A stretch of 64,000 nt of DNA, from the NCBI GenBank assembly GCA_963785235.1, contig CAWAUM010000013.1:1-64000 (forward strand), read 5' to 3'. Position 1 is the first letter of the stretch. Every line of letters begins with the position of its first letter. The notes beneath the pieces are model-generated. The model did no database searches, had not been told where the DNA came from, and saw only the letters and a program-made list of their open reading frames with translations. Positions 25,852 through 32,626 of the stretch are shown piece after piece. This stretch comes from an uncultured delta proteobacterium (GTDB lineage Bacteria; Desulfobacterota; Desulfomonilia; UBA1062). Made by a program: the position numbers and the translations under genes.

Positions 25852-26017
25852 CATTCTCAGATAGAATTATGCAATATTTGGGTTCTGGAATATTTTAAAG
25901 CTTAATACATAATTCAGCAGATTTTCTACTAGTTATTTTCTAGCATCTTGTCTTTATCGTTTTTATACATATTATTAGATTAATATTTTATCTTATTTTT
26001 GGTGGGAGGTGCATCGA

Positions 26018-26758
26018 ATGGCTGAGCCAACCTTAAAGGACAGAACCTTTCATATCATAATGAAACGAATGGTGGAAACGGGTCAGGCACCACACCACAC
26101 CGAGATCGCATCTGAGTTGGGCGTGTCGCCCAAGGAAGGCAAGAAGGCGCTCAGAAAACTCATTTCACGTTTCGGCTTTCCTGGATGGCTCAAGGGGGAC
26201 ACCGTCGTATCTTTCGCACCCTTCAATAATCTGCCAACCCATCACCGCCTGACGATCAATGGGGAACAAAAGTGGTTCGGCCAATGAGCGTTTGAATCGC
26301 TGGCGGTCTGCTGGCTCTTTCCTGGAAAAACGGTACAAATCGATTCAGTATGCCTCGATTGTGGCGAGCCCATACGGGTAGAGGTAAAGGACGGCATCAT
26401 AGAAAGGAGAGACCCGGAAAGCATAATCGGCTATGTCTGTGTCCCGGTTGGAAAGTGGATGTTACGCATGCCTTATTCCTGAAGCACCATGAACTTCTTC
26501 CGGTCGGAAGAACATCTCCGCAAGTGGGAAGGTTTTAAAGGGGAAGGCGGTATAATCTCCCTGGAATCTCTGATGCAGGTTTTTTCGGGCTCATACATGA
26601 AGAACAGGATGGGGGGCGATTGGGTCTCCCGTTCGAGCGAATACTTGGCAGAGATGATGGAGACACTCGATAAGCTCCAAGGCGCAGGGAAATACTGGCG
26701 GTTGGCACCGTACGAGAAGCTTGGGTTCCCCCTTGCACTTAAGTTGGGACTGTTGTAG
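26018..26758 (+). CDS. MerB-like organometallic lyase with two selenocysteines (UGA at 26285 and 26480)
   Basis: ORFs 26009..26287 and 26489..26758 share a frame. Read-through gives ...PF..LPT.HR...KWFGQ-U-AFESLAVCW...DSVCLDCGEPIRV...PYS-U-STMNFFRSEEHLRKW, colinear with MerB. GGAGGT RBS before ATG 26018. Confidence 0.85.
26299..26315 (+). promoter_or_regulatory. SECIS-like hairpin 1
   Basis: GCTGGC-GGTCT-GCTGGC (two G-U pairs); loop G 18 nt after UGA; resembles the fdhF GCAGGUCUGC apex. Confidence 0.7.
26495..26512 (+). promoter_or_regulatory. SECIS-like hairpin 2
   Basis: TTCTTCC-GGTC-GGAAGAA perfect 7-bp stem; loop G 20 nt after UGA. Confidence 0.78.
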
Positions 26759-26881
26759 GCACCATGCTCGTACTCACTGTATATAGACTAAGGAAGGGAT
26801 CGAAGAACCCCTAGGGTTCATAGAAGGTCCTTTTCCTCTGATCTGCTGGATCTGTACAGCCATGTCACAGTATCAACTGTA

Positions 26882-26985
26882 GATCTCTGCTATACTTGGA
26901 ACTTTCGAAAAGCCCTAAAACCGATGATCTGGAGTTGAAACATATGCATTAAGTCACTTCATATCAGACTGTGTCTAATGGCACT
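26882..26985 (+). repeat. degenerate dispersed repeat family A, copy 1
   Basis: GATCTCTGCTATA...GATGATCTG...TAATGGCAC, colinear with 33036-33140. Confidence 0.55.
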
Positions 26986-31477: not shown

Positions 31478-32626
31478 TCAGGCCTTCCTCCCTGTAAAAT
31501 ATTTTGACACCGCCTTCAGGGTGCCGACGATGCCGAAACGTTCAAACATAATTTTCTGATACATGGCATCTTGATTTTTAGGCGGTACATATGTTTTCTC
31601 TTTCTTATGTAACTGGTGTGCATCGTTCTTACAGACTACAAAACAGGACCCACAACCAATACATCGATCAAGATCAACGACTGCAATCTTGTCTTTCAAA
31701 GAAATGGCATCCATCGGACAACGGTCGATACATTTCTTACACCCCTTACATTTCGAAGGATCTATCGTTGCGTAATAAACCGCGCTACTCATATCTGCGG
31801 GCTTCGATTGCATTTTTACCATTTTGAGTGCGTGACAACAGTCAAAACAGCAACAACAGATGAATTGTGGTTCTCGAGCGTTTTGAGGCTGAAGGATAAA
31901 ACCCGCCTCTTCAGCATTATTCAAAATGTTTATGGCCTCTTCATTTGTAATCGGACGGCCAACGCCTCTTCCAATGCTAAAGCGTGCCGCGTCACTAAAT
32001 ACAAGACAAGTCTCACGGATGTCTGAATGACGACAGGAACCACCAACCTTCTCTGTCGACTCCCGGCAGACACAATTCATCACAGCAATATCGTCTCTTA
32101 GTCCTCCTACATATTTTTTCATATCGTTATAAGGTTCTATACGTATTTCTGGAGTAATAGCCTGACCAATAGGTATGGCACGCAGCTGAAGAGTGTTCGC
32201 GCTAAACATGTCTTTCTGGAACTTCTCTTTTGTGTACTGTTCGAAATCATGCACATAATCTTTAGTCAGTCGATTGACCTGAAACTCGAACATCCCTACA
32301 GCAAGCTGTGCCAAGCTGTATTGCTTTCCTTTCCCCTTGGATTCAAACGCACGCCCACCCATAATGGCACCTTTCTGAACAAGGTTGTCCAGCACCGTCT
32401 CCAATTCTGTTGGAGTGATTGTAATGCCACTTTTCTGTACCCGCCTGTGTATCCGGCTGATAGTTTCTGGAAGGATGTTCAGATTTAGTGCGATTTCCGC
32501 CTCGACAGGCGTAAAAAGATGTTTTAGAAGTCTTAGTTCTACTCCAGACGCGGTTTCTGAGAATGGTATCGGCATCTTGTTAATCTCTTCACGTAATTTA
32601 CAATATACGTCATCTTGATTAACCAT
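31478..32626 (-). CDS. 4Fe-4S dicluster-domain protein (N-terminal HTH-like region)
   Basis: LFTPVEA, C.CR, ICCCCFDCC, two CxxCxxCxxxC motifs. Confidence 0.85.
   Translation of the reverse strand: MVNQDDVYCKLREEINKMPIPFSETASGVELRLLKHLFTPVEAEIALNLNILPETISRIHRRVQKSGITITPTELETVLDNLVQKGAIMGGRAFESKGKGKQYSLAQLAVGMFEFQVNRLTKDYVHDFEQYTKEKFQKDMFSANTLQLRAIPIGQAITPEIRIEPYNDMKKYVGGLRDDIAVMNCVCRESTEKVGGSCRHSDIRETCLVFSDAARFSIGRGVGRPITNEEAINILNNAEEAGFILQPQNAREPQFICCCCFDCCHALKMVKMQSKPADMSSAVYYATIDPSKCKGCKKCIDRCPMDAISLKDKIAVVDLDRCIGCGSCFVVCKNDAHQLHKKEKTYVPPKNQDAMYQKIMFERFGIVGTLKAVSKYFTGRKA

Follow-up and report, generated by a model that had tools for sequence, protein, structure and literature searches.

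A stand-alone MerB-like gene with in-frame UGA codons at both catalytic cysteine positions in an uncultured delta proteobacterium

The stretch of DNA that we analyzed, referred to below as the window, comprises positions 1 to 64,000 of the forward strand of contig CAWAUM010000013.1, from the assembly of an uncultured delta proteobacterium (GCA_963785235.1; Desulfobacterota, Desulfomonilia, UBA1062). Positions 26018 to 26758 hold a gene for a protein related to the organomercurial lyase MerB. At the positions of the two catalytic cysteines of MerB, this gene has in-frame UGA codons that are predicted to encode selenocysteine (Sec, or U), and each UGA is followed by a hairpin that resembles a selenocysteine insertion sequence (SECIS). 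The features at the locus are as follows.

26005 to 26009, forward strand: Shine-Dalgarno-like GGAGG, read from the sequence, 8 nucleotides (nt) 5' of the ATG at 26018.
26018 to 26758, forward strand: coding sequence (CDS) of the predicted di-selenocysteine MerB-like protein, 246 residues, with a TAG stop at 26756-26758.
26285 to 26287, forward strand: UGA for predicted Sec90, counterpart of MerB Cys96, from the in-frame TGA and the alignment (TGA in 80 of 80 genome loci and 80 of 80 metagenome loci).
26294 to 26296, forward strand: GAA for Glu93, which the alignment to 1s6l and 3f2g places where MerB has its proton donor, Asp99.
26299 to 26315, forward strand: SECIS-like hairpin 1, a 6-bp stem (26299-26304 with 26310-26315, two G-U pairs) and the loop GGUCU (26305-26309).
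26351 to 26362, forward strand: conserved C-L-D-C motif (Cys112 and Cys115), invariant in the homologue alignment.
26480 to 26482, forward strand: UGA for predicted Sec155, counterpart of MerB Cys159, from the in-frame TGA and the alignment (TGA in 80 of 80 genome loci and 80 of 80 metagenome loci).
26495 to 26512, forward strand: SECIS-like hairpin 2, a 7-bp stem (26495-26501 with 26506-26512) and the loop GGUC (26502-26505).

Translation of the frame with TGA read as U yielded 246 residues, and the only in-frame stops were the TGA at codon 90 (26285) and the TGA at codon 155 (26480), which are separated by 64 codons. This agrees with a preliminary description, made from the sequence alone, of a single frame running from the ATG at 26018 to the TAG ending at 26758. 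The same description had noted that standard gene calling gives unrelated fragments, and under translation table 11 the frame was indeed split into the fragments 26009-26287 and 26489-26758. The Met at 26018 is the start common to the homologues, whose alignments begin there. In the protein, Sec90 stands in the context Q-U-A-F-E and Sec155 in the context Y-S-U-S-T-M. Among relatives, the entropies at codon positions 1, 2, and 3 were 0.63, 0.39, and 1.43 for codons 1 to 89; 0.69, 0.45, and 1.42 for codons 91 to 154; and 0.80, 0.64, and 1.39 for codons 156 to 228. Position 3 is far more variable than positions 1 and 2 in all three segments, and the signature of translated sequence therefore runs throughout the gene, including the stretch between the two UGAs that had been called protein-like. 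A scan for promoters and terminators returned counts at the level of shuffled sequence, and its sole "terminator" match was SECIS-like hairpin 1.

We searched profiles with the protein after reading U as C. The Pfam MerB family (PF03243) was matched over residues 71 to 187 with 76.7 bits (cut-off 27; E 2e-21), which establishes family membership, and a search of the genome with the same profile gave a 60.3-bit match that spans two TGA codons. The best solved relatives by sequence were MerB2 (5c17, E 1.5e-9) and then MerB. HMMER alignments to 3f2g, 1s6l, and 5c17 placed U90 on Cys96, E93 on Asp99, and U155 on Cys159, with one nuance: against the wild-type chain 1s6l, U155 fell on the adjacent Cys160 of the CC pair, and against the C160S chain it fell on Cys159. 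These alignments bear out the earlier placement of the UGAs at the two MerB catalytic Cys positions and of Glu in place of Asp99, a replacement that is also kept in the related loci. Cys112 aligns with Cys117 of MerB; Cys115 is without a MerB counterpart.

An AlphaFold2 model built from a 46-sequence alignment reached a predicted local distance difference test score (pLDDT) of 94.7 and a predicted template modeling score (pTM) of 0.90. When this model was compared with the PDB by Foldseek, ranks 1 to 11 were all MerB or MerB2 (E 9.5e-11 to 4.2e-7), the best template modeling (TM) scores were 0.62/0.72, and the next match had an E value of 0.27. A check for MerB similarity, proposed in the preliminary description, thus returned both a Pfam match above the cut-off and a MerB fold. 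The N-terminal domain is winged-helix-like, with weak fold likeness to the LexA and MntR repressors (Foldseek ranks 12 to 50, E > 0.1). No model in NCBIfam release 20 claims the protein. An extra C-terminal helix, at residues ~231 to 242 of the model (...EKLGFPLALKLGLL; window 26690-26755), is found in the window protein and its closest relatives (L019-L041, ~250 amino acids [aa]). The 232-aa majority of relatives is without this helix and ends near G-K-T-G-P-F-W. The helix could be a membrane or partner contact.

We then asked how the two TGA codons behave among relatives. Prokaryotic genomes, one for each species, were scanned by pattern; 458 relatives were found among these species-representative genomes, and the codons were read in the best 80 of the 458. 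All 80 of these loci had TGA at both sites (78 were parsed first and the remaining 2 separately) and shared the TGA/TGA/Glu arrangement. A metagenome search returned more than 500 stretches; in the best 80, in which codons were read, TGA, TGA, and Glu were present without exception (80 of 80). Across the 144 loci gathered, duplicates included, 119 combined TGA/TGA with Glu93, Cys112, and Cys115. Carriers were labeled mostly as Thermodesulfobacteriota or as "delta proteobacterium" metagenome-assembled genomes (MAGs) of Syntrophobacteria, Desulfobacterales, and Syntrophales. A few bore the labels Gemmatimonadota, Dehalococcoidia, Thermoanaerobaculaceae, or Spirochaetales, and one carrier is a symbiont of Olavius. 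Within the window organism's phylum, which was sampled evenly, the gene was found in 41 of 401 genomes. In a Chloroflexota-type phylum, 21 of 401 genomes gave MerB-like matches, and these included Sec/Sec, Cys-x-x-Asp/Sec, and Cys/Cys forms.

Two further loci have two TGAs. A very distant MerB-like frame, L018 (E 1.3e-4 to the window protein), lies in a genome of the same family as the window organism (G023). Both of its aligned catalytic positions are TGA, Asp stands where MerB has Asp99, and its site-2 hairpin is of the same GGUC type; it may represent a second, independent di-Sec lineage. The Spirochaetales-labeled MAG of locus L025 (genome G431) holds, at C39:21718-22413, a second paralogue that is 37% identical and has two TGAs; its other copy is 70% identical.

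The preliminary description had placed a hairpin with a GGUC loop 18 to 20 nt after each UGA. Both hairpins are present. They start 14 to 15 nt after each UGA, with loops that start at 17 nt (UGA1) and 19 nt (UGA2), and the part of the claim that did not stand concerns the GGUC of hairpin 1, which varies among relatives. We compared synonymous codon use across 105 distinct Sec/Sec relatives as the ratio of observed to background entropy. This ratio was 0.30 for codons 94 to 100 and 0.22 for codons 160 to 165; the remaining 142 scorable columns averaged 0.90, with no value under 0.15. The codons frozen in this way were the following.

Ser94: TCG in 95 of 97.
Cys98: TGC in 89 of 89.
Phe161: TTC in 105 of 105.
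Arg162: CGG in 104 of 104.
Ser163: TCG in 103 of 103.
Glu164: GAA in 102 of 103.

Pairing was also conserved. In hairpin 1, 99.5% of cells were paired (106 sequences) versus 12 to 63% when the partner was slid. Several one-sided changes kept the pairing; in addition, a G-C pair is flipped to C-G in L014, and both G-U pairs have become G-C in L012, where the amino acids are altered. The loop reads AGUUU in many sequences and CGUGU in the Chloroflexota-type ones, with U23 invariant and G22 nearly so. In hairpin 2, 97.3% of cells were paired (111 sequences), with slid controls at 43 to 63%. Its outer pair, 16-33, was C-G in 55 sequences, U-A in 33, and U-G in 8, and the covariation score was reached by 0 of 500 shuffles. 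Through this switch, the choice of Leu or Phe at codon 160 is tied to the third, synonymous base of the Glu165 codon.

The core of hairpin 2, UUCC-GGUC-GGAA, was found in all forms that have UGA at site 2, including those with protein identity as low as 27%. It encodes the peptide F-R-S-E after Sec155 (26498-26509), an invariant TTC CGG TCG GAA at the top of the SECIS. Hairpin 2 was absent from 5 of 5 Cys/Cys homologues, in which F-R-S-E is also gone and F-F-A-S or F-F-S-S stands instead. Because the peptide motif is lost together with the hairpin, it looks imposed by the RNA; in this segment, the RNA structure appears to dictate the protein sequence. The distant forms that have Cys at site 1 lack hairpin 1; it persists in L013 and L133, which look like recent Sec-to-Cys conversions. 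In Escherichia coli, SelB makes contact with a G-U, located near +23 and +24, in an apical loop of the GGUC type. The selD gene of the window organism's genome has a hairpin with a G-U-containing loop at ~+23 to +27 after its UGA, the same distance. The two SECIS stretches are the most nucleotide-conserved parts of the gene, and the depth of metagenome contigs peaks exactly on them (26244-26354 and 26466-26539).

Can the organism insert Sec? The genome that holds the window (13 contigs, 3.9 Mb, 93% completeness) contains selA (453 bits), the SelB wing domain (65 bits) inside a 653-aa open frame, a tRNA-Sec with anticodon TCA (contig C4), and selD (383 bits). The frames of selA and selB are without internal stops under table 11. 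The selA, selB, selC (tRNA-Sec), and selD genes that the preliminary description had proposed to look for are thus all in place. The selD gene contains one in-frame TGA and is itself a selenoprotein gene (L004, contig C7:38014), with the motif G-A-G-U-A-C-K. Of 995 long open frames in this genome, 467 end in TGA, more than in any other stop codon, and the genetic code is therefore standard.

Homologues with Cys in place of Sec were also found. Cys/Cys forms, which include more distant homologues, are P0032, L015-L017, L142, and L145. Locus L013, from the same genus as the window organism, has TGC at site 1 and TGA at site 2, and L133 also has Cys at site 1. Many database proteins of 155 aa carry Cys at the first site and terminate immediately ahead of the second. 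Sec/Sec, Cys/Sec, and Cys/Cys forms therefore all exist, in line with the expectation that homologues carry Cys or UGA at both sites. In one locus, L100 (genome G355), site 2 reads GTA (Val) and a TAA lies inside the match, which may reflect a decayed copy or an assembly error.

The gene stands alone, as had been described. Divergently upstream lie two genes for YkuD L,D-transpeptidases, and convergently downstream lies a gene for a PMT_2 glycosyltransferase and then a two-component system. At 5 kb downstream (window 31478-32626, reverse strand), a gene encodes a 382-aa protein that has two 4Fe-4S ferredoxin motifs. Among 79 related loci, 6 have a similar 4Fe-4S-domain protein as the immediate upstream neighbor of the MerB-like gene, too few for it to be called a partner. 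Elsewhere in the genome, hgcA (411 bits, cut-off 275) and hgcB (119 bits, cut-off 99) are adjacent on contig C1 (601210-602489, reverse strand; loci L153 and L155), and neither match has an in-frame stop. The organism is therefore a putative mercury methylator.

Taken as a whole, these data suggest a functional, monocistronic di-Sec gene of the MerB fold with lyase chemistry, an explanation that we regard as probable but well short of secure. By analogy with MerB, the protein would on balance act as a metal(loid)-carbon lyase. Cleavage of the Hg-C bond specifically falls somewhat below an even chance on the same analogy. In the mechanism that we propose, SelB and Sec-tRNA(Sec) would be recruited twice, by two separate in-frame SECIS hairpins, and the product would be a MerB-fold protein with Sec, Glu, and Sec at the three active-site positions; the comparative evidence supports this part of the mechanism. 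Following MerB, the two selenolates would bind the metal of an organometallic substrate, and Glu93 would protonate the leaving carbon, giving a hydrocarbon and a metal ion held as a bis-selenolate. Selenolates, which are ionized at neutral pH, have a higher affinity for Hg than thiolates do. They would be expected to beat thiols and sulfide in the competition for Hg, and the most likely substrates would be methylmercury and other organomercurials at trace levels in sulfidic, anoxic habitats. Since there is no MerA, release of Hg(II) would have to go to low-molecular-weight thiols or to sulfide. An alternative exit for Hg(II), which is speculative, is the conserved Cys112-x-x-Cys115 pair.

Several results weigh against a functional di-Sec lyase, some at the level of the RNA and others at the level of function. 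The 61-nt folds at the two sites showed no extra stability over shuffles (z = +0.83 and -0.26), and a scan of 25900-26900 against Rfam, with E values up to 10, gave no SECIS family and only a chance ARRPOF match (E 9.2). Only one double-compensatory change was seen in hairpin 1 among the 106 sequences. Because the fold energies are ordinary, the case for hairpin function rests on conservation. Ordinary hairpin energies, together with the fragments that table 11 yields, would fit TGAs that are true stops, in a decayed MerB pseudogene or between three small unrelated ORFs. However, the positions of both TGAs are the same in all of the 160 best loci that were fetched, purifying selection acts on the protein in all three segments, and synonymous sites are frozen directly after each TGA. 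These three lines of evidence contradict the pseudogene reading; the frame also has no other stops or frameshifts, and homologues have Cys at the same columns. We therefore consider true stops very improbable. Still harder to sustain is a reassigned code in which TGA is read as Trp or another standard residue. This reading would fit the Trp found at both sites in 10 of 11 full-length database proteins aligned (20 of 88 matches were aligned), but one such protein, P0004 (W/W), is the exact translation of L247 with its two TGAs read as W. TGG was found at either site in 0 of 160 fetched best loci, and TGA is itself the terminal stop of the homologous genes in L011 and L013. The P0004/L247 identity, the use of TGA as a stop, and the tRNA-Sec contradict the reassigned code. 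The Trp in database proteins is an artefact of calling genes with TGA as Trp on short contigs, as directly seen for P0004, and Trp in homologues, which had been raised as a possible objection to Sec, was dismissed on this ground. Sequencing error was likewise rejected; independent assemblies read TGA, and not TGG or TGC, at both sites. Contigs from four public sequencing runs showed no change at either TGA where covered, and stretches that lack cover in X2, X4, and X20 carry no weight; the run data are assembled contigs only, and one run, X1, is possibly the source of the window and hence not independent. A 263-nt contig from an RNA library bridges UGA2 and could be DNA carry-over. On these sequence grounds, the gene almost certainly encodes a true di-Sec selenoprotein.

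At the level of function, the adverse points concern mercury and turnover. The canonical MerB equivalog models NF033555 and NF009710 were missed by a wide margin (43.9 bits versus 200 and 44.5 versus 193), which leaves room for another substrate, and Glu for Asp with an extra CxxC in the active-site region allows a different one as well. No mer genes (merA, merR, merT, or merP) adjoin the gene, and no match to MerA (TIGR02053) in the genome exceeded the cut-off (best 243.6 bits versus 454). Conserved neighbors were also lacking when 1657 flanking ORFs from 79 loci were clustered: the commonest families, a CCG-domain protein, an acyl-CoA dehydrogenase, and a CoA ligase-like protein, occurred in 10, 9, and 7 loci. 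With no mer operon, no MerA, and no conserved neighbor, the genomic context therefore does not point to mercury. HgcA was above the cut-off in 20 of 41 carriers versus 99 of 360 non-carriers, a hand count over related genomes that are not independent. The enrichment is modest, shared ancestry could be an alternative cause, and we do not count it in favor of a functional link. One alternative is the same di-Sec MerB-fold enzyme with a substrate other than mercury, cleaving or forming an organoarsenic, organotin, organolead, or organoselenium/tellurium bond: the site is non-canonical (Sec/Sec/Glu plus CxxC), the equivalog scores are low, and no mer context or conserved neighborhood ties the gene to mercury. 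In the accessible part of their preprint, Haft and Gwadz (bioRxiv 10.1101/2022.07.06.499078) add a caution on SaoL, another MerB-like selenoprotein, that with Sec at the metal site organomercurials are not to be assumed. Nevertheless, protonolysis of Hg-C is the only chemistry demonstrated for the MerB fold, and all 11 significant fold matches are organomercurial lyases. HgcA in the carrier genome and in half of the sampled carriers implies that methylmercury is made in the cells or their habitat, and no arsenic or tin genes were seen beside the gene. A substrate other than mercury is thus unlikely, though it deserves attention.

A protein without turnover would account for other observations. 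In this alternative, the di-Sec protein would be a high-affinity trap, chaperone, or sensor for Hg(II) or methylmercury (or for Cu or Cd), with a stoichiometric bis-selenolate site. Bonds between Hg and selenolates are extremely strong, which poses a problem of product release and turnover for a true catalyst, and there is no MerA to take the product. The N-terminal winged-helix-like module, with its weak likeness to LexA and MntR, would also fit a sensor, as would MerB variants reported to bind other metals at the site in the accessible part of the same preprint (Haft and Gwadz, bioRxiv 10.1101/2022.07.06.499078). However, the acid at the Asp99 position, which is needed only for protonolysis, is strictly kept as Glu, and canonical MerB, an enzyme, has the same N-terminal domain. 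It can also be argued, though this is not data, that two costly Sec insertions would be wasteful in a sacrificial binder. We judge such a trap or sensor to be improbable, and we retain the di-Sec lyase as the preferred explanation.

The finding bears on how such genes are surveyed. The gene is systematically misannotated, with database entries that are fragments or Trp-containing artefacts, so it is probably overlooked when merB is surveyed in anoxic environments. Few bacterial proteins have two Sec residues far apart in the chain with a separate in-ORF SECIS for each, and the Sec/Sec, Cys/Sec, and Cys/Cys forms make up a natural series on what Sec gains at a metal site. The accessible text of one review (PMC10114901) states that pathways of anaerobic methylmercury degradation are still to be established and that a synthetic selone-thiol mimic of the MerB site cleaves methylmercury. 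A natural di-selenolate MerB in putative mercury methylators is a concrete candidate gene for anaerobic methylmercury turnover and may bear on the handling of methylmercury in oxygen-free sediments. Going further, we tentatively raise a reading that is rather unlikely as it stands: the family would be the missing enzyme with which anaerobes demethylate methylmercury independently of mer, a C-Hg lyase with two selenolates whose gene stands alone and often occurs with hgcAB. If so, picomolar methylmercury would be captured in sulfidic sediments, and net methylmercury levels would be set by this family. The demethylase would be carried by about one-tenth of the sampled genomes of the phylum and by hundreds of species overall, and, since gene calling truncates it at the first UGA, it would have escaped every merB-based survey.

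Among known systems, the closest in structure are MerB of plasmid R831b (1s6l, 3f0o, and 3f0p) and MerB2 of Bacillus megaterium (5c17). The window protein shares their fold (Foldseek E 9.5e-11 to 4e-7, TM up to 0.72), the same three active-site positions in the alignment, and the same N-terminal winged-helix-like domain. In contrast, MerB and MerB2 have Cys/Cys/Asp (Ser in MerB2) where the window protein has Sec/Sec/Glu, and identity is 16 to 24%. Canonical MerB also differs in that the window protein has no mer operon, an extra Cys115, and, in its subclade, a C-terminal helical extension. The window protein is not a canonical mer-operon MerB: its score lies below the equivalog level, the Cys/Asp/Cys triad is replaced, and the mer operon is absent.

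The preliminary description had likened the protein to SaoL, the MerB-like organometallic lyase selenoprotein of the SAO locus (NF040728), described in the accessible part of the Haft and Gwadz preprint (bioRxiv 10.1101/2022.07.06.499078). Both are PF03243 proteins of strict anaerobes with a UGA-encoded Sec at the Cys159 position, and both are truncated in databases. According to the same part of that source, SaoL has one Sec, in a C-U dipeptide, retains Cys and Asp at the positions of Cys96 and Asp99, respectively, and belongs to a conserved nine-gene SAO operon. The window protein instead has two Sec, no C-U dipeptide, Ser/Ala before Sec155, Glu for Asp, and an added CxxC, and its gene stands alone. 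It reached only 50.2 bits with the SaoL model (cut-off 140), over residues 13 to 136 only, and the genome search gave 44.5 bits. SaoP (NF040733) was not found in the genome (best 32 bits versus 295), and no Sao genes lie beside the gene. The assignment to the SaoL type thus failed, and what emerges is a separate group: a second, widespread, unannotated subfamily of MerB-like selenoproteins, marked by Sec at both catalytic positions, a separate SECIS for each Sec, and Glu for Asp. A one-Sec MerB-like group from the Chloroflexota-type phylum (L134-L151) resembles this subfamily in its Sec at site 2, its UUCC-GGUC-GGAA hairpin, and its U-[SGA]-T-M-x-[LF]-F-R-S motif. It differs in having Cys-x-x-Asp at site 1 and no hairpin 1, and it is 26 to 31% identical to the window protein. 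Members L134-L136, L138-L141, L143, L144, L146-L149, and L151 of this group have T-U-S-T-M at site 2 and no C-U dipeptide, which is not the SaoL motif.

SaoL is the sole MerB-like entry, with one Sec, in the accessible text of a 2026 review of prokaryotic selenoproteomes (PMC13188914), and likewise the only one in that of a 2022 review. We found no di-Sec MerB-like protein in the accessible portions of the literature, including papers on Olavius and on dual codes; one may be listed in the supplements to Haft and Gwadz or to the selenoproteome surveys that PMC13188914 and PMC9312934 cite. The two-Sec bacterial selenoproteins named in the accessible text of the 2026 review are a putative mercuric reductase-like metal-binding protein with a UxxU motif, UXX-star family 1, and ferredoxin-thioredoxin reductase (PMC13188914). 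As far as that text describes them, they share with the window protein more than one UGA-encoded Sec per polypeptide, and several are metal related. In the UxxU protein, both Sec residues lie in one short motif, as given there, whereas those of the window protein lie 64 codons apart, each with its own SECIS. Judging from MerB structures, Sec90 and Sec155 would meet only in the folded active site.

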